DNA of 64,000 nucleotides from an uncultured Anaerolineales bacterium (GTDB lineage Bacteria; Planctomycetota; Phycisphaerae; FEN-1346): positions 34,444-98,443 of the forward strand of contig CAYNLG010000002.1 of NCBI GenBank assembly GCA_964397995.1. The letters are read 5' to 3'. The notes beneath the pieces are model-generated. The model was given only the letters and a program-made list of their open reading frames with translations. It had not been told where the DNA came from and made no database searches. A program made the translations under genes and the position numbers. Of this stretch, positions 883-15,646 are shown piece by piece; position 1 is the stretch's first letter, and every line of letters starts with the position of its first letter.

Positions 883-1335
883 GTGGCGACGCTCCGCGTC
901 CTCATCATGGCCATGACGCTGCTGATGGGCGCCATCGGCACCGGCCGGATCGGGCCCAACCGGTCCGCCGTCCGCGAGGCCTTCGCCCTCTCCGAGACGG
1001 GCTACGCCGGCGGCATCGCGGTCATCCAGATCGGCGTCGCCCTGGCCGTCATGGCCCTCTGCCTGTTCGTCATGGGCGGCCTCTTCAGCTCGACCTGGCC
1101 CTCGTTCTACGCCCAGGCGGCCGTGTGGCTGAGGGACCACCGCGACGTCCTGCCCTGCGCCTCGGGGCTCGGCAACGTCCTCGGCATCTCGCTCTGCGTC
1201 TTCGCCGCCGGGGTGATCGCCGACCGGAGCATGACGGCGGCCCTGGTGTTCGGCCCGTGCGTCCTCGGGGCGTTCGGCCTGCTCTACCTGGGGCGGGGCC
1301 TCTATGGCCGGGCGCGGGGGGAGGCGGCCGCGTGA
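883..1335 (+). CDS. Mini-MFS: in-frame internally deleted paralog of the downstream MFS transporter, retaining TM1 plus TM11-12 (possible recent pseudogene)
   Basis: The 150-aa ORF aligns at its N-terminus to the first ~55 aa and at its C-terminus to the last ~85 aa of the adjacent MFS protein. Example: LIMAMTLLMGAIGTGRIGPNRSAVREAFALSETGY against LIMAWMLLVGAIRSGLLGPNRLAIREAYGLSETDF; FSSTWPSFYAQAA against FSTSWPTFYARAA. Its TGA overlaps the downstream GTG (GTGA). Confidence 0.45.
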   Translation: MATLRVLIMAMTLLMGAIGTGRIGPNRSAVREAFALSETGYAGGIAVIQIGVALAVMALCLFVMGGLFSSTWPSFYAQAAVWLRDHRDVLPCASGLGNVLGISLCVFAAGVIADRSMTAALVFGPCVLGAFGLLYLGRGLYGRARGEAAA

Positions 1336-1355
1336 GAGCTCTCCGCTTCCTCATC

Positions 1356-2507
1356 ATGGCGTGGATGCTGCTGGTGGGGGCGATCCGCTCCGGCCTCCTC
1401 GGACCGAATCGCCTCGCCATCCGCGAGGCCTACGGCCTCTCGGAAACCGACTTCGGCGCCGCCGTCGCGATCGTCCAGGTGGCCGCCAGCATGCTGGTGC
1501 TCCTGGCGGCGCGGCGGTACCGGGACGCGCGGCCGGTGCGGGTGATGATGCTCGCGCTCGGGGCGGCGGCGGCGGGCTTTGCCGCCATCGCCCTGGTGCC
1601 CGGCGTCTGGGCCTTCGTCGGCGGCTGGGCCCTGGTCATGAGCGGTTTCGTCCTCGGCGCCGTCTCCAACAACATCTCGATGGACGTCTGGCGGGACGAC
1701 CCGCGGCGCGGCGTGGCGGTGATCCACACGTTCAACAGTGGCGGCAAGATTGCCGGCACCCTCGTCTCGGCCGTCTGGGTCGCCACGCGCTGGCGCCTCA
1801 GCTTCGCCAGCATGGGCCTGGCCTGCCTGGCGGTGCTGGGCCTGTTTCTGCTGATGAGACGGACGGGCGACCGCCCCGCGGCGAGAGGCGCGCCCGCGCC
1901 AGCGCCCGCCCGCACGCCCGATCGTCGCGTCCTCCGCCGGCCGCTCTACTGGCTCGTCCTCGCCTGCTTCGGCCTCGTCTCGGGCGGCGAGGTCGTCGTC
2001 GCCACCCTCGTCCCGGAGTACTTCGTGCTGGTGCGCGGCACGACGGAGACGACCGGGACGCTGATGCTGCTCGTCCACCTGGCGGGCCTGCTGGCGGGGC
2101 GGCTGCTGATGATCGGCCGGGGGCGCCGGCTGGGCTCGGGCGCCCTGATCGGCCTGAGCCTGGCCGCCGGCGTCTTCGCGGTGCCGCTGCTCGCGGTCGC
2201 CCACTCCGCCGTCGGGGCCGTCAGCCTCTTCGGCCTCGGCTTCATGTTCTCGACGAGCTGGCCGACGTTCTACGCGCGGGCAGCGCGGCACATGGCGCGC
2301 GACCGCGACATGCTCGCCTACGGGAGCTACCTCGGGTCGAACCTGGGCGTGGCCCTCTGCATCCTCGTAAGCAGCCGCCTGGCCGACGCCAGCCTGACGT
2401 GGGCGGTGGCCTTCGGGCCGGCCGTGATGGCCCTGTTCGGGCTTGTCTACGCCCTCAGCCCGCTGGCCCGCCTTCCGCGCGACGCCCCCGACGCCGGCCC
2501 CGCCTGA
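1356..2507 (+). CDS. MFS transporter (12-TM type); an alternative GTG start at 1332 overlaps the upstream stop
   Basis: Hydrophobic segments repeat along the 383-aa product, which has the overall MFS topology. It is full length relative to the mini paralog upstream. Confidence 0.75.
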   Translation: MAWMLLVGAIRSGLLGPNRLAIREAYGLSETDFGAAVAIVQVAASMLVLLAARRYRDARPVRVMMLALGAAAAGFAAIALVPGVWAFVGGWALVMSGFVLGAVSNNISMDVWRDDPRRGVAVIHTFNSGGKIAGTLVSAVWVATRWRLSFASMGLACLAVLGLFLLMRRTGDRPAARGAPAPAPARTPDRRVLRRPLYWLVLACFGLVSGGEVVVATLVPEYFVLVRGTTETTGTLMLLVHLAGLLAGRLLMIGRGRRLGSGALIGLSLAAGVFAVPLLAVAHSAVGAVSLFGLGFMFSTSWPTFYARAARHMARDRDMLAYGSYLGSNLGVALCILVSSRLADASLTWAVAFGPAVMALFGLVYALSPLARLPRDAPDAGPA

Positions 2508-2599
2508 GCCGCGCCCGTTTCCGCTGGCGACCCGCGGCCGCGCCCACTAGAATGCCCGCGCCGCACACCGACCCGTCCGCCCGGAGGGAGCCGAGCCTG

Positions 2600-3883
2600 A
2601 TGAAGATCCTGATCGTCGGCGGCGGGGGCCGCGAGCATGCCCTCGCCTGGAAGCTTGCCCAGAGCCCGCACTGCAGGGAAATCGTGGCCGCCCCCGGCAA
2701 CCCCGGCATCGCCCGGGTCGGCCGGTGCGTGGAGGTCGGGGCCGAGGTGGTCGACGACCTGGTGGCGCTGGCCCGCGAGGAGCAGCCCGGCCTGACGGTC
2801 ATCGGCCCGGAGGCGCCGCTGGCGGCGGGCTTGGCCGACCGGCTGCGCGCCGAGGGGCTCCGCGTCTTCGGCCCCGGCAGGGAGGCCGCGCGCGTCGAAG
2901 GTTCCAAGGCCTGGTCCAAGGCCGTCATGAAGCACCACGGCGTGCCGACGGCGGACTTCCACGCGTTCGACGACCTGGCCGAGGCCCTCCACTACATCGA
3001 CACCCACGAGGAACCGCTCGTCGTCAAGGCCTCCGGCCTGGCCGCCGGCAAGGGCGTCTTCGTCTGCCGCGACCAGGACGAGGCCCGCGCCGCCGTCAAG
3101 ACGATCATGGAGGAGCGGGCGTTCGGCGCGGCCGGGGACACGGTCGTCATCGAGGAACAACTCAAGGGCGAGGAGGCGTCCATCCTCGCGCTCGTCGACG
3201 CCTCGGCCATCTACCTGCTGGAGTCGAGCCAGGACCACAAGCCGGTCTTCGACGACGACGAGGGCCCGAACACCGGCGGCATGGGCGCCTACAGCCCCGC
3301 CCCCGTCGTCACGCCGCGCATCGAGGCCCTCATCGAACGCGACGTCCTCGTCCCGATGATCCACGGGATGAAGACCGAAGGCGCCCCGTACCAGGGCCTG
3401 CTCTACGCGGGGCTGATGATCACCGCGGGCGGCCCGAAGGTGCTGGAGTTCAACTGCCGCTTCGGCGACCCCGAGGCCCAGCCGCTCCTGGTGCGCCTCA
3501 AGAGCGACCTGGTGGAGGTCCTGGAGGCCGTCATCGACGACCGCCTCGACCAGGTGACGCTGGAGTGGGACCCGCGGCCGGCGGTCTGCGTCGTCATGGC
3601 CTCCGGCGGGTACCCCGGGCCGTACGAGACGGGCAAGGCCATCACGGGCGTGGACGAGGCGGAGGCCAACGGCGACGTCGTCGTCTTCCACGCCGGCACC
3701 CGGGCCGAGGATGGGCACCTCTATACCGATGGCGGCCGCGTCCTCGGCGTCACGGCCCTGGCCGACACCATCGCGGCGGCGCGCGACCGGGCGTACGAAG
3801 CGGTGCGGAAGATCCGCTTCTACCGCGCCCACTGGCGGACCGACATCGGCGCCAAGGCCATCCGCCGCCTCGAACGCACCTGA
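2600..3883 (+). CDS. purD: Phosphoribosylamine--glycine ligase (GAR synthetase)
   Basis: MKILIVGGGGREHALAWKLAQS at the N-terminus, the ATP-grasp core, and a 427-aa length typical of PurD. Confidence 0.92.
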   Translation: MKILIVGGGGREHALAWKLAQSPHCREIVAAPGNPGIARVGRCVEVGAEVVDDLVALAREEQPGLTVIGPEAPLAAGLADRLRAEGLRVFGPGREAARVEGSKAWSKAVMKHHGVPTADFHAFDDLAEALHYIDTHEEPLVVKASGLAAGKGVFVCRDQDEARAAVKTIMEERAFGAAGDTVVIEEQLKGEEASILALVDASAIYLLESSQDHKPVFDDDEGPNTGGMGAYSPAPVVTPRIEALIERDVLVPMIHGMKTEGAPYQGLLYAGLMITAGGPKVLEFNCRFGDPEAQPLLVRLKSDLVEVLEAVIDDRLDQVTLEWDPRPAVCVVMASGGYPGPYETGKAITGVDEAEANGDVVVFHAGTRAEDGHLYTDGGRVLGVTALADTIAAARDRAYEAVRKIRFYRAHWRTDIGAKAIRRLERT

Positions 3884-3954
3884 CGGGGCCGCGGGCGGCG
3901 TCCGAATGCGCGGCGGGGGTCGGGCGTCGGAAGAGACGCACGAAGGAGGTCCCC

Positions 3955-5202
3955 ATGCGACGGACGACGGCCATCCTGCTCGCGGCAGCGGTCGTGCTTG
4001 CGGGCGCGGCACCGGGGGCGCGCGCGGCCGCGCGAAGCCCCTTCGGCCGCCTCCCTCCCGGCTGGACCGTGACGAACGTCGTCACCGCCCCGCCGCAGCA
4101 GGTCGCCCAGATCGCCCGCAACCTCGGCGGCGAGGTCGTCGGCGTCGTCAACGCCTGGGTCAAGCACGACGGCCGCCAGGTCCAGGTCAACCTCATCCAG
4201 TGCCGCGCGGGCGCCGAGACGGTCCTGGAGGCCGTCCGGAAGGCCCACGGCGGCAACCCCGCCTACGCCCTGCTCAAGGGGCAGACCGTCTACGAGTTCT
4301 GCGGCGCGGGCTACCCGATGGTCATCGAGGCCCAGTATGCCCTGGGCCTGAAACCCACGACCGTGACGTACAAGGTGCGCTTCGAGGCGGCGCCGCTGGC
4401 GGGCGGCGACTACATGAAGTTCAACCCGCTCTTCAACCGGATGCTCGAGTGGCAGGCGGCCCCGGACGACGCGGCCCGGCTCGACGCCGTGGCCGCCCTC
4501 CGCGAGGCCTTTACCTTCGGCGACACCCTCACCCTCCGCGCGACCGGCCAGGGCACCCGCCGCTCGCTCTACACATTCGACCCGGCGCCGGCGTCGCGGG
4601 CCGGCCCGGAGGACGGCCTCCTCGCGTGCACGTTCGCGGACCTGCCCCGGCTGGCCGACATGCCGCGCGTCACGGTCACCGCGACCATCACGAGCGAGGC
4701 GTTCGGGACGGTGCGGACGCGGCGGCGACCGGGGCCGGCGCTGCTCGGGCCGACGCCGTTCTGGCCCGTCGAGGCCGAGCGCGTCGCCACCCTGGCCGCC
4801 CAAGTGACCGAGGGCTGCACCGGCGACGAGGCCAAGGTCCAGGCGCTGCTCGCGTATCTCGTGCCGGGCCGCACCTACCGCGTCGGCGGGCCGACCGGGT
4901 CGCGCCATGGGGTGCTCACGTTCCTCGACCGGCGGACGGGCCACTGCTGGGACTTCGCGGACCTCTTCATCACGCTCGCCCGGGCCTCGGGCGTGCCGGC
5001 GCGCCAGGTGGCCGGCTGGCTCCAGGGCCAGAGCGGCCACATCTGGGCCGAGGTCCTCGTCGGCGGCGCGTGGCGCCAGGTCGACCCGACGGGCGGCACG
5101 GGCTGCACCAGCGACTATGTCCCGTGGTTCACCTCCGAAACGGGCGAGATGGCCGCGGTGTACCTGGCGATGCCCGAGATCGAGGTCATCCAGACGCGTT
5201 GA
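3955..5202 (+). CDS. Secreted transglutaminase-like domain protein
   Basis: An SD sequence GAAGGAGGT lies 5 nt upstream. There is an N-terminal signal peptide (MRRTTAILLAAAVVLAGAAPGARA). The C-terminal transglutaminase core Cys/His segment reads GHCWDFADLFITLARASGVPARQVAGW...HIWAEVLVGGAWRQVDPT. Confidence 0.75.
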   Translation: MRRTTAILLAAAVVLAGAAPGARAAARSPFGRLPPGWTVTNVVTAPPQQVAQIARNLGGEVVGVVNAWVKHDGRQVQVNLIQCRAGAETVLEAVRKAHGGNPAYALLKGQTVYEFCGAGYPMVIEAQYALGLKPTTVTYKVRFEAAPLAGGDYMKFNPLFNRMLEWQAAPDDAARLDAVAALREAFTFGDTLTLRATGQGTRRSLYTFDPAPASRAGPEDGLLACTFADLPRLADMPRVTVTATITSEAFGTVRTRRRPGPALLGPTPFWPVEAERVATLAAQVTEGCTGDEAKVQALLAYLVPGRTYRVGGPTGSRHGVLTFLDRRTGHCWDFADLFITLARASGVPARQVAGWLQGQSGHIWAEVLVGGAWRQVDPTGGTGCTSDYVPWFTSETGEMAAVYLAMPEIEVIQTR

Positions 5203-5353
5203 CGGGCGTGCGGCCCCCTCTCGCGGGCGCATTCACGTAGAAACGCGCCTTGACGGACATCCCGAACGGCGCCATACTGCCTGTGGTGGGGCGGACCAAA
5301 CGCAGGTGGTGGCTGTGAGTTCACACGTCAGCGTGCCCCTCCGGCAACCGGGC

Positions 5354-6457
5354 GTGCGCCCGAAGTGCGCCCGCCGGGGGTTCAACCTGGTCGAACTGCT
5401 GATCGTCATCGCCATCCTAGCCATTCTGCTGGCCTTGGTGGGCATGGGGGTCGTGGGTCCGGTCCACGACCGCTACGACACCATGCACTGCCAGTGGAAT
5501 ATGAATCACATCTACAAGGCCCTTCAGGTCAACGAGGAGGCGTCCCTCCCCGACCCGGACGCCTGGATTTCCGAGGTCATCAAGAACGAGGCCCAGGACT
5601 GCCTGCGGTGCCCGCGGGGGATGTTCAGCGGCGACGAGGGGTACCTGAGCGGTAGCGGCATGGACTGCCAAGGGATCGTCGAGATCGACCCGCCGCCCTC
5701 GGTCGTCTTCAACACCCTGGAGAGCAACCACTACATCATGGCGTTCGCGGAGCGGGAGAACTACAAGCTGCCGTCGGCCATCTCGGTCGATATCTCCGTC
5801 CCCGGCCGGTACACCGGCAACGCCAAGTCGGAGGCCAGCATCGCCGCCGGCACGATCATCAACTGCTACTTTCTGTACTTCGATCCCGTCGGTCAGCAAA
5901 GTGCCACCTCGGCTGGCCAGATCGAGTTCAACGGCCGCATCATCGGCATCATCTGCCACGACTCCACCCTCGACAACACCGACGGCACCCTCGGGGCCCA
6001 GAACGTGAGCTACCCGACCGGCCAGAACAGCCGCGGCTTCGAGGGCGTCGAGGACATCTCCCTTCAGCCCGACCAGAAGACCCTGACCATCAACCACTTC
6101 CACTCGACGTTCCCCGGCGAGAACGTCCGGGTCATCACGGTGGGCAAGAAGGGCGGCGGGGCGGCCAGCTACGGGATCAACAACCAGATCGACGACGGCA
6201 CCACCTGGCCGGGCCAGATTCTGCTCGTCGAGTACGAGCAGGCCATCGCCGACTACGACGGCCAGGACGAGGACGACGACTGGCTCGACCGGATCGCCCC
6301 GCGGCACAACGACCGCATGAACGTGCTGACCGTCGAGGGCGCCTGCCGCACCGTCGACCCCGACGACATCCACCCGCACCGCCACCCGGCGCTGTGGGCT
6401 CCGCGGCACGTCGGGCTGCACGGCGCCGGCAGCGGCGGCTCGTCGCAGCAGCCCTGA
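5354..6457 (+). CDS. Prepilin-type N-terminal cleavage/methylation domain protein (DUF1559-like, H-X9-DG family variant)
   Basis: The N-terminus RRGFNLVELLIVIAILAILLAL is the type IV pilin/pseudopilin class III signal. A C-terminal HNDRMNVLTVEG matches H-X9-(D/E)G. The start could instead be GTG 5333. Confidence 0.7.
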   Translation: MRPKCARRGFNLVELLIVIAILAILLALVGMGVVGPVHDRYDTMHCQWNMNHIYKALQVNEEASLPDPDAWISEVIKNEAQDCLRCPRGMFSGDEGYLSGSGMDCQGIVEIDPPPSVVFNTLESNHYIMAFAERENYKLPSAISVDISVPGRYTGNAKSEASIAAGTIINCYFLYFDPVGQQSATSAGQIEFNGRIIGIICHDSTLDNTDGTLGAQNVSYPTGQNSRGFEGVEDISLQPDQKTLTINHFHSTFPGENVRVITVGKKGGGAASYGINNQIDDGTTWPGQILLVEYEQAIADYDGQDEDDDWLDRIAPRHNDRMNVLTVEGACRTVDPDDIHPHRHPALWAPRHVGLHGAGSGGSSQQP

Positions 6458-6473
6458 GCGGACCGCCCCCCTC

Positions 6474-7610
6474 TCACGTCCGGGCGGGCGTCAGCGCGTC
6501 CAGCAGCGCCTGGTTGGTGGGATACGAGTCCAGGGCCCCGAGCAGGGCCTCCAGCGCCTCGGCCGGACGTTCGCCCGCCAGGCGGCGGCGAATCGCGTAC
6601 CGCTTCTTGATCTCGTCCTCGGTGACGAAGCGCTCTTCCTTGCGGGTGCCGGAGGCGGCCACGTCGATGGCCGGGTAGAGCCGCTTCTCGGCCAGGTCGC
6701 GGCTGAGGACGCACTCCATGTTGCCGGTGCCCTTGAACTCCTGGAAGATGAGTTCGTCCATGCGGCTTCCGGTGTCGATGAGGCAGGTGGCGACGACAGT
6801 CAGGCTCCCGCCGTCCTCGAAGTTCCGGGCCGCCCCGAAGAGGCGTTTCGGTTCCTCCAAGGCGCGGATGTCGAGGCCGCCGGAGAGGGTGCGGCCGCTG
6901 GAGGGCTGGGCCTTGTTGAAGGCCCGCCCGACCCGCGTCAGGCTATCCATGAAGATGACGACGTCCTGCCCCGCCTCGGTTAGCGCCTTGGCCTGGGCAA
7001 ACGCCAGCCGCGCCAGACGCAGGTGCTGCTGCACCTCCTGGTCGTTGGAGGAGGCGATGACGGTGGCCTCGGTGGCGCGGCGGAAGTGGGTGACCTCCTC
7101 GGGGCGCTCGTCCACGAGGACCATCATGGCCCGGACCTCGGGGTAGTTCGTCGTCACCGCCTGGGCCATGTGCTCCAGCAGCGTCGTCTTGCCGGCCCGG
7201 GGCGGCGAGACGATCAGCCCGCGCTGCCCCTTGCCGATCGGCGCCACCAGGTCCAGGACGCGGGTGGTCTTGCGGCTGGCGACGGTCTCGAGCCAGAGCG
7301 CCTCGTCCGGGTCGATGGCGATCTGCTGGTCGAACGGCGTGACGTCGGCATAGGCGTCGGGCGCCATGCCGCACACGGTCGTCACCTCCGCCAGCTGCAG
7401 CCCCCGGCCGCGCTTGTCCTTCTTGGTCGGGCCCTCCAGCTCGACGCCTTCCTTGAGCCGGTGCCGCTTGACCAGCCCCGGCGGCACAAAGATGTCTTGC
7501 TTCGTCGCGCGGTACGCCCGCTCCGGGTCGCGCAGGAAGCCGTATCCGCGGTCGTGGAGTTCGAGCACGCCGCGGGCGGGCTCGGACGACGGCTGTGCAG
7601 CCTTGGCCAT
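6474..7610 (-). CDS. rho: Transcription termination factor Rho (start at MAKAAQ; the listed ORF extends to 7721)
   Basis: RNA-binding OB region (GVLELHDRGYGFLR), Walker A (GLIVSPPRAGKTTLL), and Q/R loops. Aligns to E. coli Rho from about residue 50 onward. Confidence 0.9.
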   Translation of the reverse strand: MAKAAQPSSEPARGVLELHDRGYGFLRDPERAYRATKQDIFVPPGLVKRHRLKEGVELEGPTKKDKRGRGLQLAEVTTVCGMAPDAYADVTPFDQQIAIDPDEALWLETVASRKTTRVLDLVAPIGKGQRGLIVSPPRAGKTTLLEHMAQAVTTNYPEVRAMMVLVDERPEEVTHFRRATEATVIASSNDQEVQQHLRLARLAFAQAKALTEAGQDVVIFMDSLTRVGRAFNKAQPSSGRTLSGGLDIRALEEPKRLFGAARNFEDGGSLTVVATCLIDTGSRMDELIFQEFKGTGNMECVLSRDLAEKRLYPAIDVAASGTRKEERFVTEDEIKKRYAIRRRLAGERPAEALEALLGALDSYPTNQALLDALTPART

Positions 7611-7731: not shown

Positions 7732-9072
7732 TTACGGTGTGACCGCGGGCTCGCCGGGCACGGGCGGCTCCGGCGCCGGGCCCTCGTCGGTCGCTTGGTC
7801 GGCGGGCTCCGGCGGGGGCGCGGCCTTCGGGTCGCCCTTGAAGATCGCCCACGGCACCGGCACCGGCAGCGGGACCCCGAGAGGGTTCGCCCCCTGCGGC
7901 TTCGCCTTCAGGTCGAACCGCCGCAGCCGCCCGCCGAGCGCCGCCGACGCCACGTGCTGCCGCACGAACTCCATCGCGGGGGCCTTGTACTGCCGGAACG
8001 CCGCATCGGCCGTCGAGCCCCCCGGCCCGCGGCCCACCAGGATGAAGTGGTTCGGCGCCAGGTTCACGTAGTCGTCCAGGTCGTCGTCCGGCACGGGGTC
8101 GCCGAAGAGGTTGTAGGCCAGCAGGGCGCGCGGCACACGGATGTTGAGCATCTTGAAGGCCCGCTCGGCCCGGGCGCGGTCTGCCAGGTCGCGGATCGCC
8201 TCGAGGGCGTCGAACTGCTCCGGCGCGGTGAAGCGCGGCAAGCTGACGAAGCCGGCCACGCTGGCGCCGACGTGCGGGCGGCGGACGAGCGTCCCGCTCG
8301 CCAGCAGCTTCAGCGGCGCCACCTCCTTGCCCGCCGGGGCCGCGTACGCCGCGCGGTCCCCGAAGTGCGTGTCCCGCGGGTTCACGAAGTTGATGAACCG
8401 CCCGCGGATCGGCTCGAACGGTGCCGGGTCCTCGCAGTCCATGCTCGAGCCCAGGAAGGCGACGTGGTCGACGCGCGCGAGCAGCGCCGGGGCCGCCCGC
8501 GTCCCCGGGGGCAGGTCGCCGAGGAACGCCAGCTGGACCGCCCGGGTCCCCGCGCTGAAACCGACCAGGGCGACGTGCCCCGCCCCCCCGTGCCGCCGCC
8601 GATGCACGTCGAGCATCGCCAGGAGCCGCGCCGCCCCCTTCTGCTGGCCGGCGAGGTTGAGGTGCTCGGCCACGACGTTTGACGATTCGCTCCACTTCAG
8701 GAGCAGGACGGCGAGCCGGTGCGGGTCGCCCGGGAAGCCGTGCGGGCTCTCGGCCAGCAGCCGGGCCGTCCAGCGGAAGGCCTCGACGGTGTCGGCGGAG
8801 CCCTCGGCGAAGATCAGCAGGTTCGTATCGTCGACCGGCTGGTCGGCGGGCAGGTCCACGTCCTGCACGGCCGCGTGCCGCCCTTCCACCGTCCCGCGGA
8901 CGACGAACGCCGGCGTGCCGTAGACGGCGCGGACGCGTTCGGGCGTGAGGGCCCCCTCGACGTCCGCCGGGGGGGCGATGACGACGGCGGCCCCGTCGCG
9001 TTTCGGCTGGCATCCGGCCGCGGCCGCCAACACGACGGCCGCCCCCATCCAGAGACTCCTGCGGCGCAGCAT
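7732..9072 (-). CDS. Lipoprotein with alpha/beta-hydrolase fold (GFSAG nucleophile elbow)
   Basis: Signal peptide plus lipobox-like MLRRRSLWMGAAVVLAAAAGC. A GxSxG motif (HVALVGFSAGTRA). The P/E-rich C-terminal tail looks like a linker. Confidence 0.55.
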   Translation of the reverse strand: MLRRRSLWMGAAVVLAAAAGCQPKRDGAAVVIAPPADVEGALTPERVRAVYGTPAFVVRGTVEGRHAAVQDVDLPADQPVDDTNLLIFAEGSADTVEAFRWTARLLAESPHGFPGDPHRLAVLLLKWSESSNVVAEHLNLAGQQKGAARLLAMLDVHRRRHGGAGHVALVGFSAGTRAVQLAFLGDLPPGTRAAPALLARVDHVAFLGSSMDCEDPAPFEPIRGRFINFVNPRDTHFGDRAAYAAPAGKEVAPLKLLASGTLVRRPHVGASVAGFVSLPRFTAPEQFDALEAIRDLADRARAERAFKMLNIRVPRALLAYNLFGDPVPDDDLDDYVNLAPNHFILVGRGPGGSTADAAFRQYKAPAMEFVRQHVASAALGGRLRRFDLKAKPQGANPLGVPLPVPVPWAIFKGDPKAAPPPEPADQATDEGPAPEPPVPGEPAVTP

Positions 9073-9192
9073 CGCGGTTCCTCTCACGGGCCCGTTCGGC
9101 CGATTGTACCGCCCGGGCCGCCCAAGGCAAGCCGAGACCCGCGGCCGCCGTGCGGGTTCAAGGGAAGAGCCCCGTACCCGGAGGAACCGCCC

Positions 9193-9516
9193 ATGGTCCG
9201 CCGTCTCGTCTTCCTGGTCGCCCTCGGCCTCGTGGCCGCCTCCGTCGCCCAGGCCGCCGAGGAGGGCGGCCCGTGGCAGCCCTGCGGCGAGCTGCCGACC
9301 GGGGGCCCGGCCGCGCGGGCCGCGTCCGCCCCGGCCGACCCGGCCAAGCAGTCGCTCCGCGTCAAGAACCTGACCCGCCGCTTGGACTACGCCAAGACCC
9401 TTATCGAGCAGAACCAGGTCCGACGCGCCAAGCTCATGCTCCACGACATCGCCACCAACCACGGCGACACCGAACCCGGCCGCGAGGCCGCCACGCTCCT
9501 CGAAACGCTTACGTGA
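9193..9516 (+). CDS. Small secreted protein (108 aa) consisting of a signal peptide, a short linker and a C-terminal module that is repeated in the downstream enzyme
   Basis: Signal peptide MVRRLVFLVALGLVAASVAQA. The C-terminal ~50 aa (LRVKNLTRRLDYAKTLIEQNQVRRAKLMLHDIATNHGDTEPGREAATLLETLT) is ~90% identical to the C-terminus of the 9546..11519 product. Confidence 0.55.
   Translation: MVRRLVFLVALGLVAASVAQAAEEGGPWQPCGELPTGGPAARAASAPADPAKQSLRVKNLTRRLDYAKTLIEQNQVRRAKLMLHDIATNHGDTEPGREAATLLETLT
9358..9516 (+). repeat. Copy 1 of a ~160-bp duplicated coding segment (C-terminal module); copy 2 is at 11358..11519
   Basis: The two segments are ~90% identical at the nucleotide level. One 66-nt run is identical: gccaagctcatgctccacgacatcgccaccaaccacggcgacaccgaacccggccgcgaggccgcc. 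Confidence 0.8.
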
Positions 9517-9545
9517 CCCCGAACCCGTCCGACTGGAGGCATCGC

Positions 9546-11519
9546 ATGCGCCGCACTACTGGCCGCATCGCCCTGACCCTGACGTTCGTCCTCGCCGCCG
9601 CCGCCGTCGCCGGCGCCTGGCCGGAGCCCGTCCCGGGCTTCAAGCCGCCCGCCCCGGGCGAGCACCCGCGGCTGCTCTTCCGCGAGGGGGACCTGCCCGC
9701 GATCCGCAAGCGGGCCGAGACGCCCGAAGGCAAGGTCATCGTCGAGCGCCTGAAGCAGCAACTCCAGGGCGCCTTCACCACCTGGCACCCCGCCGGCTAC
9801 GCCTTCCTCTACCAGCTTACCGGCGACGAGGCGTACGCGAAGCAGGCGGCCGAGACGGCCCTGGCCGTCATCGGCGGCAAGGGCAACAAGGACGACCGGT
9901 ACTCGTGGCCGGGCAAGGGCCAACTCCGGGCCGGGCCGGTCATGGCCGGCGTCGCCCTGGCCTACGACCTCGGCTACGACGGCTGGGACGACGCCACCCG
10001 CCGCCGCGTCGCCGAGGGCCTCCAGGGCAACCCGCACTACGACGCGATCGCCAATTCGCCCCGCCACGGCCCCGGCTGCAACCACTTCGGCGCCCACCAG
10101 GGCGGCCTCGGGTTCACGCTGCTGGCCCTCCGGGGCGACCCGGGGGTCGACCAGGCCCGCCTCGAAAAGCACCTCGAGAAGGTCACCAAGGGCGCCATGC
10201 GCGAGATCACCGAGGGCTTCGGGACGCGCGGCTACTACTACGAGGGGCACCACTGCGGCCGCCTGTCGGGCAACACCGGCCTCATCCCCTTCATCCAGGC
10301 CATGCGCGTCGCGGGCGGCAAGGACCTCGTCAACGGCTGCGAGAACGCCCAGTGGCTCGCCGCCAAATGGTGCTACGAACTCCTGCTCCAGCCCGACGGC
10401 TCCTACGCCGACCTGGAGCGCGGCATGTATTGCCGCAACTTCCAGCGGGGCGAGCAGCTCTCCAGCGACGGCGACTTCGCCGAGGGGTTCGGCATCATCC
10501 CCGACGCCTGGAAGGGCGCCCTGAAGTGGACCTTCAACCACGTCGTCCAGCCCGGCCCGAACAAGGACTACGACGTCGTCGAGTACCCCCACCACGCCAT
10601 CTTCGCCCTGGTCAACTGGCCGATCGACGTCCCCGAACAGAACCCCGGCGAGGTCTTCCCCCGCGTCATGCACGACCGCGGGCCCAACTACTTCGTCTTC
10701 CGCAGCGGCTGGGGCACCCCCGAGGGCGACCTCATCACCACCGCCCTGCTCGGCAGCAAGCCGGGCGGCGGGCGCGGCATGGCGAAGGGCGGCTCCGTCA
10801 TGGTCCTCGGGCGCGGCATCCGGTACACGTTCCCGGCCATGTTCTACACCTGCGAACTCAGCCACGCCTACTTGGCCGCCGACGGCTCCGGCACCATCAC
10901 CGGCATCCTCCTCGATGGCGTCTCGGACAAGAAGGCCAAGCCCGCCATTGCCCTCGGCAAGGCCCCCAACTGCCTGGCCGTCGACTACAGCGCCGCCTCC
11001 GGGGCCGACCTCCTGGTCGCCTACACCGGCCCGCAGATCGGCCACCGCACCGAATACTGGCTCGACATCAAGAAGGCCCAGGTCAAGGACGAGAAGGGCG
11101 CGGGCGGGTATTTCACCAAGACGACACCGCTCAGCTGTGGCGGCCACGACTTCTACGTCATGACCCTCCAGAAGGGCGCCGCCCCCGAGCCGCGCGTCGA
11201 CGGCAACCGCATCACCGTCGGCAAACAGACGATTGCCTTCGACGGGCAGAAGCTGGTCCTCGGGACCATCGCCGGACCGATGGGCGGGCCCTCGGCGGCG
11301 GGCGGCGCGGGGTCGCGTGCCACGGCGTCCCGCCCCGCCGACCCGGAGAAGGACGCCCTCCGGATCAAGAACCTGACCCGACGCCTGGACTACGCCAAGA
11401 CCCTCATCGAGCAGAACCAGGCCCGGCGCGCCAAGCTCATGCTCCACGACATCGCCACCAACCACGGCGACACCGAACCCGGCCGCGAGGCCGCCAAACT
11501 GCTGGAGACGCTGAAGTAG
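9546..11519 (+). CDS. Secreted heparinase II/III-like or alginate-lyase-like (alpha/alpha toroid) protein with a C-terminal conserved module
   Basis: Signal peptide MRRTTGRIALTLTFVLAAAAVAGA. The N-terminal half resembles the heparinase II/III or alginate lyase toroid (WHPAGYAFLYQLTGDEAYAKQAAE...). The family call is tentative. The last ~50 aa duplicate the tail of the upstream small protein. Confidence 0.55.
   Translation: MRRTTGRIALTLTFVLAAAAVAGAWPEPVPGFKPPAPGEHPRLLFREGDLPAIRKRAETPEGKVIVERLKQQLQGAFTTWHPAGYAFLYQLTGDEAYAKQAAETALAVIGGKGNKDDRYSWPGKGQLRAGPVMAGVALAYDLGYDGWDDATRRRVAEGLQGNPHYDAIANSPRHGPGCNHFGAHQGGLGFTLLALRGDPGVDQARLEKHLEKVTKGAMREITEGFGTRGYYYEGHHCGRLSGNTGLIPFIQAMRVAGGKDLVNGCENAQWLAAKWCYELLLQPDGSYADLERGMYCRNFQRGEQLSSDGDFAEGFGIIPDAWKGALKWTFNHVVQPGPNKDYDVVEYPHHAIFALVNWPIDVPEQNPGEVFPRVMHDRGPNYFVFRSGWGTPEGDLITTALLGSKPGGGRGMAKGGSVMVLGRGIRYTFPAMFYTCELSHAYLAADGSGTITGILLDGVSDKKAKPAIALGKAPNCLAVDYSAASGADLLVAYTGPQIGHRTEYWLDIKKAQVKDEKGAGGYFTKTTPLSCGGHDFYVMTLQKGAAPEPRVDGNRITVGKQTIAFDGQKLVLGTIAGPMGGPSAAGGAGSRATASRPADPEKDALRIKNLTRRLDYAKTLIEQNQARRAKLMLHDIATNHGDTEPGREAAKLLETLK
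11358..11519 (+). repeat. Copy 2 of the ~160-bp duplicated C-terminal-module coding segment
   Basis: See copy 1. The copies are exactly 2000 nt apart in the same orientation and both end at a stop codon. Confidence 0.8.
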
Positions 11520-11566: not shown

Positions 11567-11595
11567 TTGAATCGGCCGCCCGCGGCGGCTAGAAT
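11567..11595 (+). promoter_or_regulatory. Sigma70-type promoter for tRNA-Lys (TTGAAT-N17-TAGAAT)
   Basis: A near-consensus -35/-10 pair with a 17-nt spacer. The -10 ends 18 nt before the tRNA 5' end. Confidence 0.45.
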
Positions 11596-11612: not shown

Positions 11613-11685
11613 GGGGGCGTAGCTCAGTTGGTAGAGCAACGGCCTTTTAAGCCGTGGGTCGAGAGTTCGAGTCTCTCCGCCCTCA
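11613..11685 (+). tRNA. tRNA-Lys (anticodon UUU), CCA not encoded
   Basis: A manual cloverleaf was built. Acceptor GGGGGCG/CGCCCUC, D-arm GCUCAGUUGGUAGAGC, anticodon stem ACGGC/GCCGU with loop CUUUUAA, T-arm GAGAGUUCGAGUCUCUC. Confidence 0.9.
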
Positions 11686-11686
11686 C

Positions 11687-11714
11687 TTGACAAACGGGCG
11701 AGCGGTCGCATAAT
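11687..11714 (+). promoter_or_regulatory. Sigma70-type promoter for tRNA-Glu (TTGACA-N16-CATAAT)
   Basis: A perfect TTGACA lies directly after the tRNA-Lys 3' end. An AT-rich -10 (CATAAT/ATAATA) sits ~55 nt before tRNA-Glu. Confidence 0.45.
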
Positions 11715-11767: not shown

Positions 11768-11842
11768 GGCCCCATCGTTCAATGGTTAGGACACGGGCTT
11801 TTCAAGCCTGCAATGCGGGTTCGAATCCCGCTGGGGTCACCA
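11768..11842 (+). tRNA. tRNA-Glu (anticodon UUC), CCA encoded
   Basis: Acceptor GGCCCCA/UGGGGUC, a Glu-type D region UAGGACAC, anticodon stem CGGGC/GCCUG with loop UUUUCAA, T-arm GCGGGUUCGAAUCCCGC, then A-CCA. Confidence 0.9.
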
Positions 11843-11944: not shown

Positions 11945-12502
11945 CTATCCTCCCCGCTCCCCCGCCCCGCGCGCATAGTCCGGATACACCGCCCGCACCT
12001 CCTCGTCCCAGGCCTGCCCGGGCGGCATGACGGCCAGCTTCTTCCGGATGCCCGCCAGGTGCCGCGCCGTGTGCATCCGCATCCGCTCGACGTACGCCGG
12101 GAGGGCGCGCGGCGGATGGGTCGGGTACCGGACCGCCTCGACGGCGAGGTGCTCGGGGCCGAGCGCGGCCGAGAGCGCCGCCACCCGCTCCCGCAGCTCC
12201 TTCACCAGCCGCGCCAGCGCGTACGGCGTCGGCCCGTGCCACGCGAAGATGGCCGTGTCGGCCTTCACCGTCTCCGGCGTCGCATGCCCGGCAAGCGCGC
12301 GGCCCAGCTCGACCGCCGCCCGGTGCTCGCAGTTCACGCAGTGGGTCACCGCCCGGAGGATGGGCCAGACGTCCTCGCCGGGCGGCACCCAGTGGACCTG
12401 GTCCTCGCTCAGCCCGCGGAGGCCGGCCGCCATCTCGTCCAGCATGGCGGCGACCTCGCCCAGGGTCGCCTTGACGTCGCCCAGCTCGGTCTCGGGGGTC
12501 AT
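11945..12502 (-). CDS. DinB/YfiT-like (DinB_2 family) putative metal-dependent protein
   Basis: A 185-aa helical protein with His-containing motifs spaced as in DinB_2 (WHGPTPYALARLVKE, HTARHLAGI). Start at MTPETELGD. Confidence 0.5.
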   Translation of the reverse strand: MTPETELGDVKATLGEVAAMLDEMAAGLRGLSEDQVHWVPPGEDVWPILRAVTHCVNCEHRAAVELGRALAGHATPETVKADTAIFAWHGPTPYALARLVKELRERVAALSAALGPEHLAVEAVRYPTHPPRALPAYVERMRMHTARHLAGIRKKLAVMPPGQAWDEEVRAVYPDYARGAGERGG

Positions 12503-12721
12503 GCGTCGCTCCCACCTGGTTCGCGTTCCGGTTTGCTCGTCCTCCGCGGCGGCGTGGCCGGTTCCAATCCGACGGCCTCCAGGCCACACGTTCGGCGGCC
12601 GCACCGCGCGCGACCGCGCCCCCATCCTGCGCGGTCAGGCCGGCGGTGACAAGCGCCTGCCGGCGCGGGGCGTCGTGGCCGGCGGGGGGGGGGCGGAGGC
12701 CGCCGCGCCGACGGTGCCCCC

Positions 12722-12751
12722 TTGACCCCGCGCCCGCAAATCGGATAGAAT
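12722..12751 (+). promoter_or_regulatory. Sigma70-type promoter upstream of perR-katA-prx (TTGACC-N18-TAGAAT)
   Basis: The -35/-10 pair lies 16-50 nt upstream of the Fur-family gene start. The spacer is 1 nt longer than optimal. Confidence 0.4.
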
Positions 12752-12767
12752 CCGAGGTAGGATAAAG

Positions 12768-13259
12768 TTGGAACCCAGGGGCCGGAGACGCCAGACCGCC
12801 ATGGCCGCCCCGAAGCACGACCTTGACCGCCGCGTCGACGCGTTCATCGACGCCTGCCGCGCGCGCGGCCTGAAGGTCACGCCGCAGCGGACGGCCGTCT
12901 TCCGCGAGCTCGCCCGCACCGAGGGCCACCCGGACGCCGAGACCCTCTGGGCGCGGGTCCGCGAGACCCTCCCCGCGATCGCGCGCGACACGGTCTACCG
13001 GACGCTCGCGACGCTCGAGGCCGAGGGCTTCGTCCGCAAGGTCGACACCCTGGGCGAGCGGACCCGATACGACGCCGACCTCGGGGCCCACCACCACTTC
13101 ATCTGCACGGGGTGTGGCTTGGTCAGGGACTTCGAGAGCGCCCAGCTCGACGCCTTCACCCCGCCGCCCGAGGTGGCCCGCTGGGGCGACGTCGAGTACG
13201 TCCAGGTCCAGCTGCGCGGCCTGTGCAAGGCGTGCCGGCGCAAGGCCGGGAAGCGATGA
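12768..13259 (+). CDS. perR: Fur-family transcriptional regulator, probably peroxide-responsive PerR (alternative ATG at 12801)
   Basis: Fur-family winged-helix fold with the HHHFIC and two CxxC motifs (CTGCGLVRD...CKAC). Sits immediately upstream of catalase and peroxiredoxin. Confidence 0.75.
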
Positions 13260-13365
13260 ACCGAGCCGCGCCGGCCCGGACGGCCGGTGCGCCGCATACC
13301 GAAGACACGGACAGACGCCGAACCTGACAGGGGGGCCCCACCCCCGACGCCCAAGGAGGCAGACC

Positions 13366-14904
13366 ATGCCCAAGAAAGGGAAGACGCGCACGAACGAGGC
13401 CAAGGCGCCGCGGCTGACGACGGCCGCCGGCGCGCCGGTCGGCGACGACCAGAACACGCTGACCGCCGGTCCCCGCGGGCCGGCCCTGATGCAGGACGTG
13501 CACCTGGCGGAGAAACTGGCCCACTTCAACCGCGAGCGCATCCCGGAACGCGTCGTCCACGCCAAGGGCGCGGGGGCCTACGGCGTCTTCGAGTGCACCG
13601 CCGACATGTCGGAGTATACGCGCGCGGCCTTCCTCTCGGAGGCCGGCAAGCGGACCGAGGTCTTCGCCCGGTTCTCGACGGTGGGCGGCGAGAAGGGCTC
13701 GGCGGACGCGGCCCGCGACCCGCGCGGCTTCGCGGTCAAGTTCTACACCGAGGAGGGCAACTACGACATGACCGGCAACAACACGCCGGTCTTCTTCATC
13801 CGCGACCCCCTGAAGTTCCCCGACTTCATCCACACGCAGAAGCGGCACCCGGCCACCGGCGCCCCGGACGCCGACATGTTCTGGGACTTCCTCTCGCTGA
13901 CGCCCGAGTCCATCCACCAGGTGACCATCCTGTTCTCGGACCGCGGCACGCCCCGCGGCTACCGCCACATGAACGGCTACAGCAGCCACACCTTCAAGTG
14001 GTACAACGCCAAGGGCGAGTACGTCTGGGTCCAGGTCCACTTCAAGACCGAGCAGGGCATCCAGAACCTGGACCGCGCCGAAGCCACGCGCCTGGCGGGC
14101 GAGGACCCCGACCACGCCACGTGCGACCTGTACGAGGCGATCGCGCGCGGCGAGCACCCGTCGTGGCGGGTCTGCGTCCAGATCATGCCTCCCGACGAGG
14201 CCCGCACTTACCGCTGGAACATCTTCGACATCACCAAGGTCTGGCCGCACGCCGACTACCCCCTCATCGAAATCGGCCGCATGACCCTCACCCGCAACCC
14301 CGCGAACTACTTCGCGGAGGTGGAGCAGGCGGCGTTCAGCCCGGGGAACCTGGTGCCGGGCATCGCGGCGTCGCCGGACAAGATGCTCCAGGCCCGGGTC
14401 GTCTCGTACCACGACGCCCACCTGCACCGCCTGGGGCCGAACTACCCGTTGCTGCCCGTCAACGCCCCGAAGGCCGCCGCGGCCGCCAACTACCAGCGCG
14501 ACGGCGCGATGCGCTTCGACGCCAACGGGGGCGGCGGGCCGAACTACTGGCCCAACTCCATGGGCGGGCCCGCGCCGGAGGCCGGTACCGACGAGCCGCC
14601 CCTCGGCCTGGAGGGCGAGGCCGCCCGCCATCCCCAGCCCCTGACCGACGACGACTTCGTCCAGGCCGGCGCCCTGTACCGCGACGTCATGACCGACACC
14701 GACCGCGCCCACCTCGTGGGCAACCTCGTCGCGCACCTGGGCGGCGCCCGGGAGCGGATCCAGCTCCGCCAGGCCGCCCTCTTCTTCAAGGCCGACCCGG
14801 ACTACGGCCGCCGCGTCGCCGAGGGCCTCGGCCTCGACGCCGCCCGCGTCGAGGAGCTGGCCACCATGAGCCAGGACGACCGTGTCGCGGCCACGTCCGC
14901 GTGA
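13366..14904 (+). CDS. katA: Catalase (monofunctional heme catalase, small-subunit clade)
   Basis: An SD sequence AAGGAGG lies 7 nt upstream. Catalase core motifs are present ([36 protein letters not shown]-like region). Length is 512 aa. Confidence 0.92.
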
Positions 14905-14962
14905 CCGCGTGATCCGTACCCGAAACCGCTGTCAGACCCCCGCACACGAAAGGAGCCGTTCC

Positions 14963-15646
14963 ATGGACGAGCAACGCCGCATGCCGCTTATCGGCGAGAA
15001 GGCCCCGGCCTTCAAAGCCGAGACCACCCAGGGCCCGATCAACTTCCCCGACGACTACAAGGGCGAGTGGGTGGTCTTCTTCTCGCACCCGGCCGACTTC
15101 ACGCCGGTCTGCACCACGGAGTTCATGACGTTCGCCTCGATGGCCGACGAGTTCCGCGACCTGAACTGCGAGCTGCTCGGCCTCTCGATCGACTCCACCT
15201 ACAGCCACATCGCGTGGCTGCGCACCATCAAGGAAAAGATCGAGTACAAGGGCATGAAGAACGTCGAGGTCATGTTCCCGGTCATCAGCGACCTGACGAT
15301 GGACGTCGCGAAGGCCTTCGGCATGCTCCAGCCCGAGGCCAGCACCACGCAGGCCGTCCGGGCGGTCTTCATCATCGACCCGGAGGCCACGGTCCGCGCG
15401 ATCCTCTACTACCCGCTCGCCAACGGCCGCAACATGGACGAGGTCAAGCGCCTGCTGCTGGCGATGCAGCACTCGGACGAGTACGGGATCGCGACGCCGG
15501 CGAACTGGCGGCCGGGGGACGACGTCATCATCCCGCCGCCGGGCTCGTGCGGCAGCGCGAAGGAACGCGTCTCGAAGGCCGGCGCCGACACCAAGGTCCT
15601 GGACTGGTTCCTGACCCTGAAGAGTTGTCCGCACGGCGAGAAGTAG
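14963..15646 (+). CDS. Peroxiredoxin (1-Cys/Prx6-type)
   Basis: An SD sequence AAAGGAG lies upstream. The peroxidatic motif is FTPVCTTE. Length is 227 aa. Confidence 0.9.
   Translation: MDEQRRMPLIGEKAPAFKAETTQGPINFPDDYKGEWVVFFSHPADFTPVCTTEFMTFASMADEFRDLNCELLGLSIDSTYSHIAWLRTIKEKIEYKGMKNVEVMFPVISDLTMDVAKAFGMLQPEASTTQAVRAVFIIDPEATVRAILYYPLANGRNMDEVKRLLLAMQHSDEYGIATPANWRPGDDVIIPPPGSCGSAKERVSKAGADTKVLDWFLTLKSCPHGEK

Follow-up and report, generated by a model that had tools for sequence, protein, structure and literature searches.

A single-TPR tail shared between a heparinase-fold enzyme and the predicted secreted mini-protein encoded beside it

A TPR unit pairs two antiparallel helices over about 34 residues, and a capping (solvating) helix commonly closes it at the C-terminal end. 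Small modules at protein C-termini may also serve attachment or export: dockerins are duplicated 22-residue, Ca-binding, EF-hand-like segments that bind cohesins, and C-terminal sorting signals either combine a motif, a hydrophobic helix and a basic tail or consist of an ~80-aa CTD with a beta-sandwich fold. The C-terminal domain of FimV combines a single TPR with a capping helix and is a partner-binding domain, the partner being FimL (bioRxiv 10.1101/116954). New genes can arise by partial or chimeric duplication (reviewed in PMC3449122), a process in which a copied fragment of the parent gains a new 5' part and a promoter and becomes a shorter paralogue. The cases on record are mostly eukaryotic. 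Here, we describe a bacterial locus at which the 3' end of an enzyme gene, encoding a linker and one predicted TPR, recurs as the 3' end of a small gene immediately upstream.

The repeat and the small gene

In the window (the whole stretch of DNA analysed, 64,000 nucleotides), positions 9301-9514 and 11304-11517 form an in-frame direct repeat. Two adjacent ORFs have it at their 3' ends, one of 107 aa (9193-9516) and one of 657 aa (9546-11519). That a small protein and an enzyme share such a repeat had been noticed in a sequence-only reading of the window, and this was confirmed by a repeat search, BLASTN, MAFFT and BLASTP. In particular, the repeat search returned a 193-nt direct repeat (9322-9514 and 11325-11517; 88% identity, spacing 2003 nt), which BLASTN widens to 9301-9509 and 11301-11512 (212 columns, 86%, E=7e-69); in the MAFFT alignment, both copies diverge past their two stop codons. 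The near-identical repeat is thus about 195-215 nt long and not 160 nt as first estimated, and the longest perfect run within it (9424-9493 = 11427-11496) spans 70 nt rather than 66 nt. Protein identity between the module copies is 91% over 55 aa, and the DNA of the repeat is 86-88% identical. BLASTP aligns residues 35-106 of the small protein with residues 578-656 of the enzyme across a 7-aa gap. A third copy of the module was found in the window neither by tblastn nor by a search of all six-frame ORFs with an HMM of module-like units. A reading of the repeat as an RNA element was rejected because the repeat is in frame, its differences are mostly synonymous, and Rfam reports only two tRNAs.

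The small gene and the spacer behind it contain the following features:

9180..9184, + strand: Shine-Dalgarno-like GGAGG, 8 nt 5' of the small-gene ATG (read from the sequence)
9193..9516, + strand: small gene, 107-aa secreted mini-protein (predicted signal peptide, linker and single-TPR module); ATG 9193, TGA 9514-9516
9193..9255, + strand: predicted Sec signal peptide of the small protein, MVRRLVFLVALGLVAASVAQA with AEE after the cleavage site (inferred by rule)
9295..9354, + strand: linker copy (Gly/Ala/Ser/Pro), 7 codons shorter than the enzyme linker (BLASTP alignment)
9355..9513, + strand: stand-alone module, TPR helix A, helix B and capping helix (AF2 and Foldseek)
9424..9493, + strand: 70-nt tract identical to 11427-11496, probable gene-conversion tract (permutation test)
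9535..9539, + strand: Shine-Dalgarno-like GGAGG of the enzyme gene, within the 29-nt spacer (read from the sequence)

The product of the small gene has 107 aa, one fewer than first read, and the anatomy originally proposed for it (signal peptide, linker, module) is supported. In its predicted signal peptide, a basic n-region, a hydrophobic core of 13 residues and an A-x-A site can be recognised, and from the predicted cleavage the processed protein is expected to have ~86 aa. The linker of the small copy has a 21-nt deletion relative to the enzyme linker. GC content by codon position (0.74/0.52/0.94) resembles that of neighbouring genes, and the small protein (P0001) is a called protein in an NCBI-derived record. 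As no terminator was found between the small gene and the enzyme gene, the two are likely co-transcribed.

The small gene is an orphan known from a single assembly. A word-index search of 5.8 billion proteins returned only the small protein itself; because the same search also missed the neighbouring enzyme, it is uninformative for such a short module. A seven-unit profile in that search gave nothing at E<=1. In the window, with its GC content of 70%, long frames often stay open by chance, and spurious ORFs of 100 to 800 codons are numerous.

Distribution, duplication and conversion

Elsewhere, the TPR tail was found in just one other genome, on the orthologous enzyme P0003, which is 63% identical overall and 41% identical over the module. 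No further carrier of this version of the module was detected in 1.84e9 representative proteins, in 185,579 species genomes (a species-representative collection that excludes the window's own genome) or in JGI metagenomes; in particular, a module-profile scan recovered only the ortholog locus from the species-genome contigs and nothing from the metagenome contigs. The suggestion that the module is reused across different proteins was therefore not upheld, as the only other tail carrier found is the enzyme ortholog and the small protein has no other homologue among 5.8 billion proteins.

The ortholog locus is collinear with the window for Rho, the h452/h461 gene, the enzyme, tRNA-Lys and tRNA-Glu, and a Gfo/Idh/MocA gene there occupies the place held here by the small gene. 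Since the tail elsewhere sits only on the ortholog and a Gfo/Idh/MocA gene stands there instead, the linker, module and stop codon appear to have been copied in this lineage. As judged from these comparisons, a single partial duplication, local and confined to one genome, accounts for both forms of the module, free and as a tail. In this two-genome comparison, the small gene may instead be older and have been lost in the other lineage; the loci of enzyme homologues at a greater distance (L005, L006) lack synteny, and either the small gene or the Gfo gene may be ancestral. On the other side of the small gene lies a divergent gene:

7732..9072, - strand: divergent neighbour encoding a putative lipoprotein (446 aa, G-F-S-[AS]-G motif), with synteny kept in the one other tail-bearing genome

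Its product (h452), which has a Pro-rich tail, matched no family in Pfam or NCBIfam.

The head of the small gene was compared with the 5' ends of the enzyme gene, its ortholog and the Gfo gene by local and semi-global DNA alignments scored against shuffles, and none of the alignments rose above the shuffles (z about 2.2, -0.7 and -0.7, respectively). A protein similarity between the signal regions of the head and the ortholog (50% over 24 aa, E=0.008 in a two-sequence search) was discarded as too weak and composition-driven. The small gene may have begun as a tandem copy with an internal deletion. The divergent intergenic region shares just a 26-nt stretch with the ortholog locus (z about 3.9), and neither a remnant nor a relocated copy of the Gfo/Idh/MocA gene was found in the window.

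The two copies differ unevenly along their length. Between the module copies, dN is 0.034 (dS=0.30, omega=0.11), and by this measure the module shows purifying selection; between the linkers omega is about 0.9, and the linker copy is, on the same reckoning, evolving freely. The 70-nt identical tract is longer than expected in a permutation test (P=0.0003 over the whole block and 0.002 when restricted to the module), which points to gene conversion as the source of the identical core. The earlier proposal of recent duplication and/or gene conversion is thus borne out by the low synonymous divergence of the two copies, set against 41% identity to the orthologous tail, and by the significantly long identical tract. 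Conversion from the selected enzyme copy could alone keep the small module clean, so the dN/dS ratio is weaker evidence that the small protein has a function.

We propose that the TPR tail was gained before this genome and that of one related MAG diverged. In the present lineage, a piece of about 215 bp, reaching from the first linker codon after the beta-sandwich through the stop codon, would then have been copied to a position directly upstream of the enzyme gene. The copy would have been placed behind a signal-peptide-coding head and downstream of a divergent promoter region. It would encode a secreted mini-protein of 107 aa, and its gene would probably share a transcript with that of the enzyme. 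The two copies may be kept alike by gene conversion and by purifying selection acting on the module. Taken as a whole, a mini-gene copied from the tail, maintained by conversion and selection and acting through a tether function, is the best explanation of the locus, and we regard it as reasonably probable.

It is unlikely, though well within reason, that the small ORF is instead a non-functional by-product, namely a partial duplicate that stays open by chance behind a signal-like stretch and is kept healthy-looking only by conversion. Such an origin would suit an orphan with no homologue beyond the enzyme tail, absent from the sole syntenic relative, with a significant conversion tract and a head of no detectable ancestry, in a window where chance frames of this size are common. 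However, the module outside the identical tract has 10 synonymous and 4 non-synonymous differences (omega 0.11), and the GGAGG lies at the right distance from the start and is followed by a canonical n-h-c signal peptide with A-x-A. Moreover, the head has a GC3 of 0.98, and the copied piece coincides exactly with a domain boundary, from linker start to stop codon.

Fold and possible role of the module

The structure prediction recommended in the sequence-only reading was run and yielded a single-TPR, three-helix fold for the module. In the AF2 model, the stand-alone copy comprises helices 50-72, 76-89 and 94-106 (pLDDT 92-96), and both AF2 and Foldseek place it in the TPR-like class, with an antiparallel helix A/helix B pair closed by a capping helix. 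The best structural matches found by Foldseek are the C-terminal TPR3 of FimV (4mal/4mbq; rmsd 1.4-1.7 Å, 26-27% identity, probability 0.95-0.99) and the TPR domain of YbgF/CpoB (2xev; rmsd 1.0 Å), followed by BamD. At the sequence level, a profile of module-like units matched CpoB (E=3.6e-7), FimV TPR3 (E=7.9e-6) and a KLC-type TPR in the PDB, and a strict three-module profile again placed FimV at the top (E=0.07). An exhaustive HMM search of 1.84e9 representative proteins gave 13 matches at E<=1e-3, three of which have a similar C-terminal unit; ten of the 13 were scanned against Pfam, and nine of these fall in TPR families, six of them as multi-repeat TPR proteins that pass the threshold and three as weak matches below it. 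The module itself lies below the curated Pfam TPR cut-offs (best TPR_19, 15.7 bits against 25, E=0.02), and an NCBIfam scan of the small protein returned no family at E<=1, TIGR03504 included.

According to these models, the ~53-aa module is one TPR motif with a capping helix and not a new domain. The idea of a novel docking domain or sorting signal is not supported by this generic fold; the module comes close to being an ordinary TPR fragment, the very case that the reading had set against its own proposal. The module consists of three amphipathic helices ending ...LLETLK / ...LLETLT, and features of PEP-CTERM, LPXTG and T9SS CTD sorting signals are absent from it (no hydrophobic span, basic tail or beta-sandwich); a Pfam scan of the module gave no match of the sorting-signal type. 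A role as a sorting signal is not supported, because hydrophobic or charged sorting features are missing and the small protein and the enzyme both already carry predicted N-terminal Sec signal peptides.

The enzyme gene has the following parts:

9546..11519, + strand: enzyme gene, 657-aa secreted protein with a heparinase II / alginate-lyase fold (predicted); ATG 9546, TAG 11517-11519
9684..10616, + strand: alpha-helical (alpha/alpha-toroid-like) domain, residues 47-357 (AF2 secondary structure)
10665..11261, + strand: beta-sandwich domain, residues 374-572 (AF2 model)
11277..11357, + strand: disordered Gly/Ala/Ser/Pro linker, donor or partner of 9295-9354 (pLDDT <50 at residues 582-597)
11358..11516, + strand: enzyme C-terminal module, single TPR and capping helix (AF2; 91% identical to the small-gene copy)

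The description of the enzyme as heparinase-like stands, on the strength of a confident AF2 model (pLDDT 92.6, pTM 0.85) and PDB matches to heparinase II and PL15/PL17 members; its length is 657 aa, not 658. AF2 and Foldseek agree on an alpha/alpha-toroid followed by a beta-sandwich, as in the lyase clan. In the PDB, Foldseek ranks 3e7j first (E=5e-12), then 6jp4, 3a0o and 6hzn, and heparinase II (3e7j/2fuq), Atu3025 (3a0o), Alg17c (4nei) and DSE1 (6hzn) all match with probability 1.00 and E from 5e-12 to 4e-7. Weak matches to Pfam DUF4962/DSE-like_N and to the NCBIfam HepB N-terminal family fall below the curated cut-offs (DUF4962, 17.6 against 28.7 bits; HepB, 13.7 against 600 bits), and the cut-off of Pfam Hepar_II_III is likewise missed. 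The enzyme belongs to a large, uncharacterised, heparinase-fold family, mostly from Planctomycetota-type MAGs, whose alignment has invariant or near-invariant H40, R42, Y119, R128, Y140, D141, N179, H180 and E233; 185 homologues were found for the enzyme, and, apart from the ortholog, about 180 of them are without a TPR tail. The helices of the tail in the enzyme model span residues 600-622, 626-640 and 644-656 (pLDDT 85-96).

In the tail-copy account favoured here, the inferred role of the tail is that of a tether for protein-protein interaction, comparable to the C-terminal TPR of FimV, and the free copy would bind the same partner or pair with the tail, and in this way modulate the amount of docked enzyme. 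A more specific form of this idea is a small docking system for a secreted polysaccharide lyase, in which the tail tethers the enzyme to an envelope partner (e.g., the conserved divergent lipoprotein h452) and the free module sets the tethered fraction by competition or pairing. We consider this quite unlikely; if true, partial gene duplication would recently have given rise to a device for regulation or anchoring, seen here shortly after its birth.

It is more doubtful still that several proteins use the module as a dedicated domain for docking or anchoring, or as a new sorting signal, with the free copy as scaffold, competitor or chaperone. Consistent with such a role, the module forms the very C-terminus of a secreted enzyme of carbohydrate-active type and is joined to it by a flexible linker, as dockerins and sorting domains are, its stand-alone copy is probably co-transcribed with the enzyme, and the divergent lipoprotein neighbour is kept in both tail-bearing genomes. 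The generic single-TPR fold argues against it, as do the lack of more carriers in the window and of further carriers of this version in the protein, species-genome and JGI metagenome searches; for a sorting signal, the missing sorting features and the N-terminal Sec signals on both proteins weigh in the same direction. Finally, it is scarcely credible that one copy is an assembly artefact, a strain variant of the enzyme 3' end misjoined through the 70-nt core: the source seems to be a metagenome-type assembly with both proteins on one 100-kb contig, and an exact repeat of 70 nt is able to mislead a de Bruijn graph, but the copies differ on either side of the core and therefore represent two distinct sequences regardless, a path swap at the core would give a less sensible layout (the enzyme body and then another enzyme start), and the small copy reads in frame from a start and signal peptide of its own, is preceded by its own Shine-Dalgarno sequence, and carries the 21-nt linker deletion.

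Comparison with known systems

Read as a tail copy, the locus offers a clean bacterial example of gene birth, in which a piece bounded by domain edges (a linker and one TPR) was probably copied beside its parent, and it shows that members of a large, uncharacterised heparinase-fold family can bear an accessory tail that had gone unreported. It reveals no new domain, secretion or sorting principle, and its basis is one assembly and one related MAG.

The closest structural counterpart is the C-terminal domain of FimV (TIGR03504, 4mal/4mbq), which is both the best structural and the best PDB sequence match of the module and which is likewise a single TPR with a capping helix at the extreme C-terminus. 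The FimV domain, however, is cytoplasmic and belongs to a LysM-anchored polar hub of the inner membrane, whereas the module occurs at the end of a secreted lyase-fold enzyme and also as a free copy; neither of the two module carriers has a LysM or TM segment. YbgF/CpoB and BamD (TPR_6 / YfiO type) resemble the module in helix-pair geometry and have the same type of loop and N-cap motif ('..HGDT/YPDT..A.EAA.LL..L'), and a cell-envelope location is common to all of them. In those proteins, three to five consecutive repeats form a groove, whereas the module has one repeat. Dockerin tails compare in function only: they, too, are small modules that flexible linkers attach to the C-termini of secreted enzymes acting on polysaccharides. 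The module is TPR-like in fold, gave no Pfam match to Dockerin_1 at E<=1, and is not a dockerin.

The enzyme has the same two-domain fold as the heparinase II/III-like and alginate-lyase clan (PL15/PL17/PL21/PL12/PL33) and dermatan-sulfate epimerase; the solved members are 10-14% identical to it, and no listed one carries a TPR tail. In comparison with genes described as products of partial duplication, the present case is bacterial, with parent and copy 2 kb apart in what is probably one operon and with evident gene conversion between them.

Repeat and module

Two adjacent plus-strand reading frames carry, in frame and each at its 3' end, copies of one repeat. A repeat search of the window placed it at 9322-9514 and 11325-11517 (193 nt, 88% identity, spacing 2003 nt), and BLASTN widens it to 9301-9509 and 11301-11512 (212 columns, 86%, E=7e-69). 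Aligned, the two copies cease to be similar at both stop codons; the longest stretch without a mismatch measures 70 nt (9424-9493 = 11427-11496). The sequence-only reading described this repeat correctly, though its figures (108 aa, 658 aa, 66 nt and 160 bp) were slightly off. No third copy of the module was found within the window.

Reading frames ending in the repeat
9193-9516, +, small ORF, ATG 9193 to TGA 9514-9516, 107 aa, 324 bp
9546-11519, +, enzyme ORF, ATG 9546 to TAG 11517-11519, 657 aa

Residues 35-106 of the small protein are homologous to enzyme residues 578-656, with a single 7-residue gap in the small protein's linker in the protein alignment. In an AlphaFold2 (AF2) model of the small protein alone, the N-terminal half is disordered and the module forms helices 50-72, 76-89 and 94-106 (pLDDT 92-96); the structure prediction proposed with the earlier description thus gives three confident helices that are TPR-like. 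Against the PDB, the top-ranked Foldseek match of the module was FimV TPR3 (4mal/4mbq; rmsd 1.4-1.7 A over 48-50 columns, 26-27% identity, probability 0.95-0.99), followed by the YbgF TPR domain (2xev, rmsd 1.0 A) and then BamD; the domain's tiny size keeps these E-values weak. Searches by sequence point to the same fold. An HMM built from the three true modules retrieved 13 proteins at E<=1e-3 in an exhaustive search of 1.84 billion representative proteins, and nine of the ten scanned with Pfam match TPR families (six multi-repeat TPR proteins, three weak TPR matches). Three of the hits, P0128, P0130 and P0132, carry a C-terminal unit much like the module, '...(H/Y)(G/P)DT..(G/A)KEAAKLLE.L'. 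Among PDB sequences, a profile of module-like units matched CpoB/YbgF (E=3.6e-7) and FimV TPR3 (E=7.9e-6, full length), and the strict three-module profile also ranked FimV first (E=0.07). Pfam reported TPR_19 alone on the module, below threshold (15.7 bits; the cut-off is 25), and an NCBIfam scan for module families, including TIGR03504, gave no match. Given its fold matches and sequence relatives, the module is one TPR motif with a capping helix.

The enzyme, its relatives and its locus

Homologues of the enzyme number 185, most of them unnamed proteins of Planctomycetota-type MAGs, among these Thermoguttaceae, Isosphaera and Phycisphaerae. Sixty of the homologues went into a confident AF2 model (pLDDT 92.6, pTM 0.85), which has the following parts.

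Parts of the enzyme
N-terminal, signal peptide (AF2 model)
Residues 47-357, alpha-helical domain (AF2 model)
Residues 374-572, beta-sandwich (AF2 model)
Residues 582-597, disordered linker (pLDDT below 50)
Residues 600-656, three-helix module (AF2 model)

Foldseek matches include heparinase II, the alginate lyases Dp0100, Atu3025 and Alg17c, PL33/PL35 GAG lyases, dermatan-sulfate epimerase and heparinase III (probability 1.00, E 5e-12 to about 1e-5, identity 10-14%). The model therefore upholds the label 'heparinase-like' at the level of predicted fold, and in sequence the enzyme falls below every curated cut-off (Pfam, NCBIfam). A sulfatase (Sulfatase and SGSH_C domains) at 37-873, truncated by the window start, fits a sulfated-glycan degrader of Planctomycetota type.

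Only one of the 185 homologues, P0003 (63% identity, 98% coverage), reaches the query's C-terminus, and it ends in a diverged module, 41% identical. The others examined end after the beta-sandwich or bear accessory parts of a different sort, which vary: P0056 has fused N-terminal HEAT repeats, P0060 has a C-terminal malectin domain, and one subfamily, whose members are 880-910 aa long, is extended by about 300 residues without annotation. Moreover, at L005 (5001-7701), the locus of a more distant homologue, a stand-alone HEAT_2 protein lies directly downstream of the enzyme gene. Helical-repeat partners are thus found in fused and in separate form, a hint that the association recurs.

The P0003 locus (L001, in GCA_964526295.1) keeps the window's gene order on either side: to the left, purD, a transglutaminase-core gene, Rho and a divergent lipoprotein-like gene (446/461 aa); to the right, tRNA-Lys and tRNA-Glu. 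The place of the small gene (9193-9516, 324 bp) is taken in L001 by a Gfo/Idh/MocA oxidoreductase gene (8866-9939, 1074 bp, 357 aa), of which the window has no homologue. The radical-SAM/SPASM and URO-D genes of L001 (1888-5864) likewise lack a tblastx match in the window (1300-6500) within otherwise collinear DNA; the two genomes therefore differ by several gene replacements. In the P0003 MAG, labelled 'uncultured Anaerolineales bacterium', the homologues of the enzyme and the gene content (a PEP-CTERM protein, sulfatase-rich relatives) look Planctomycetota-like; there may be an error in the label or in the binning.

The divergent intergenic (promoter) regions of the two loci share a 26-nt stretch (window 9131-9156, L001 8775-8800; GCCGAGACCCGC-GCCGCC..GCGG; z about 3.9 against shuffles), which may be a conserved regulatory site. 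Directly 3' of the enzyme gene lie the two tRNA genes, kept in L001, each preceded by a strong sigma-70-like promoter match, and beyond them what looks like an oxidative-stress cluster (11945-15646).

Features 3' of the enzyme gene
11567-11595, sigma-70-like promoter match (11/12)
11613-11686, tRNA-Lys(ttt)
11687-11714, sigma-70-like promoter match (9/12)
11768-11842, tRNA-Glu(ttc)
Within 11945-15646, minus strand, DinB_2 protein
12768-13259, Fur-family regulator
About 13366-14904, catalase-like ORF
14882-15646, AhpC/1-Cys peroxiredoxin

Copy history and the status of the small gene

The window's two modules are 91% identical in protein (dS 0.30), and each is 41-42% identical to the orthologous tail. 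Since they are far closer to each other than to that tail, the module was copied, or last homogenised, well after the window and L001 lineages split. The copied piece is exactly linker plus module, from the first linker residues past the last beta-strand through the stop codon. Nei-Gojobori counts were made on the 64 ungapped codons of the repeat block.

Substitutions between the two copies
Module, 53 codons: Sd 10, Nd 4, dS 0.30, dN 0.034, omega 0.11
Linker, 11 codons: Sd 2.5, Nd 6.5, dS 0.36, dN 0.33, omega about 0.9

The whole block departs from neutrality (binomial test, P=0.0014), and purifying selection on the module is evident. The differences avoid the central 70-nt tract (permutation of differing sites with codon-position classes kept: P=0.0003 for the block, 0.002 for the module alone), the signature of gene conversion. 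Of the module's four amino-acid differences, two are K to T changes in the capping helix, assignable by inference to the small copy because the enzyme and its ortholog are basic there.

The small ORF is probably a functional gene. GGAGG lies 8 nt upstream of its ATG, the signal peptide read from the sequence (MVRRLVFLVALGLVAASVAQA/AEE) is canonical, and GC by codon position (0.74/0.52/0.94; 0.86/0.60/0.98 in the head, its 5' signal-peptide part) resembles that of neighbouring genes; it is also a called protein in an NCBI-derived record. Between the two genes, a 29-nt spacer contains the GGAGG that belongs to the enzyme, and a search for a terminator found none, which suggests co-transcription. 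Against gene status, the small gene is an orphan with one sighting (the protein search returned no homologue except itself), chance ORFs are common at 70% GC, and alignments demonstrate no ancestry for its head. Conversion from the enzyme copy could moreover contribute to the module's low dN/dS, so this ratio alone is no proof of a functional small protein. A non-functional duplication remnant kept up by conversion is nevertheless the less probable account, at perhaps one chance in five.

Candidate function and known relatives

The enzyme tail may act as a protein-binding tether: a single TPR with capping helix is the partner-binding end in FimV, and YbgF/CpoB and BamD use their TPR domains to bind partners in the envelope. 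The small protein, secreted and free, would attach either to the tail's partner or to the tail, and would modulate docking in this way. Purely by conserved neighbourhood, the divergent lipoprotein-like gene (window 7732-9072, minus strand; L001 7371-8756, minus strand) is a candidate partner. Its 446-aa window product has a lipoprotein-like signal (AAAGC), a Pro-rich C-terminal tail and a conserved G-F-S-[AS]-G motif resembling an alpha/beta-hydrolase nucleophile elbow; it matches no Pfam or NCBIfam family, and the gene is syntenic in the sole other genome with a TPR-tailed enzyme.

The sequence-only reading suggested a docking or sorting role for the module; a dedicated multi-protein system of that kind is improbable: the TPR fold is generic, the module has no sorting-signal features, and other carriers are absent from every collection searched. 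Scanned with the module profile, representative genomes of 185,579 species (one each) and the JGI metagenomes yielded the P0003 locus alone. An assembly artefact is more improbable still, as the copies differ on both flanks of the identical core, an indel of 21 nt sets them apart, and the small copy comes with start signals of its own.

The gene pair is a neat example, resting on one assembly, and would not surprise a specialist. The C-terminal domain of FimV, a single TPR repeat with capping helix and the proposed link to its partner FimL (bioRxiv 10.1101/116954), has the module's architecture, although its TIGR03504 model finds no match here. TPRs of the YbgF/BamD type are among the closest known counterparts, and dockerin-like tails are akin by function only. 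The evolutionary process behind the small gene is partial or chimeric gene duplication of an ordinary kind, a subject reviewed in PMC3449122. What is new is a heparinase-fold enzyme's TPR tail of one repeat, together with a very young stand-alone paralogue, both of kinds already known.
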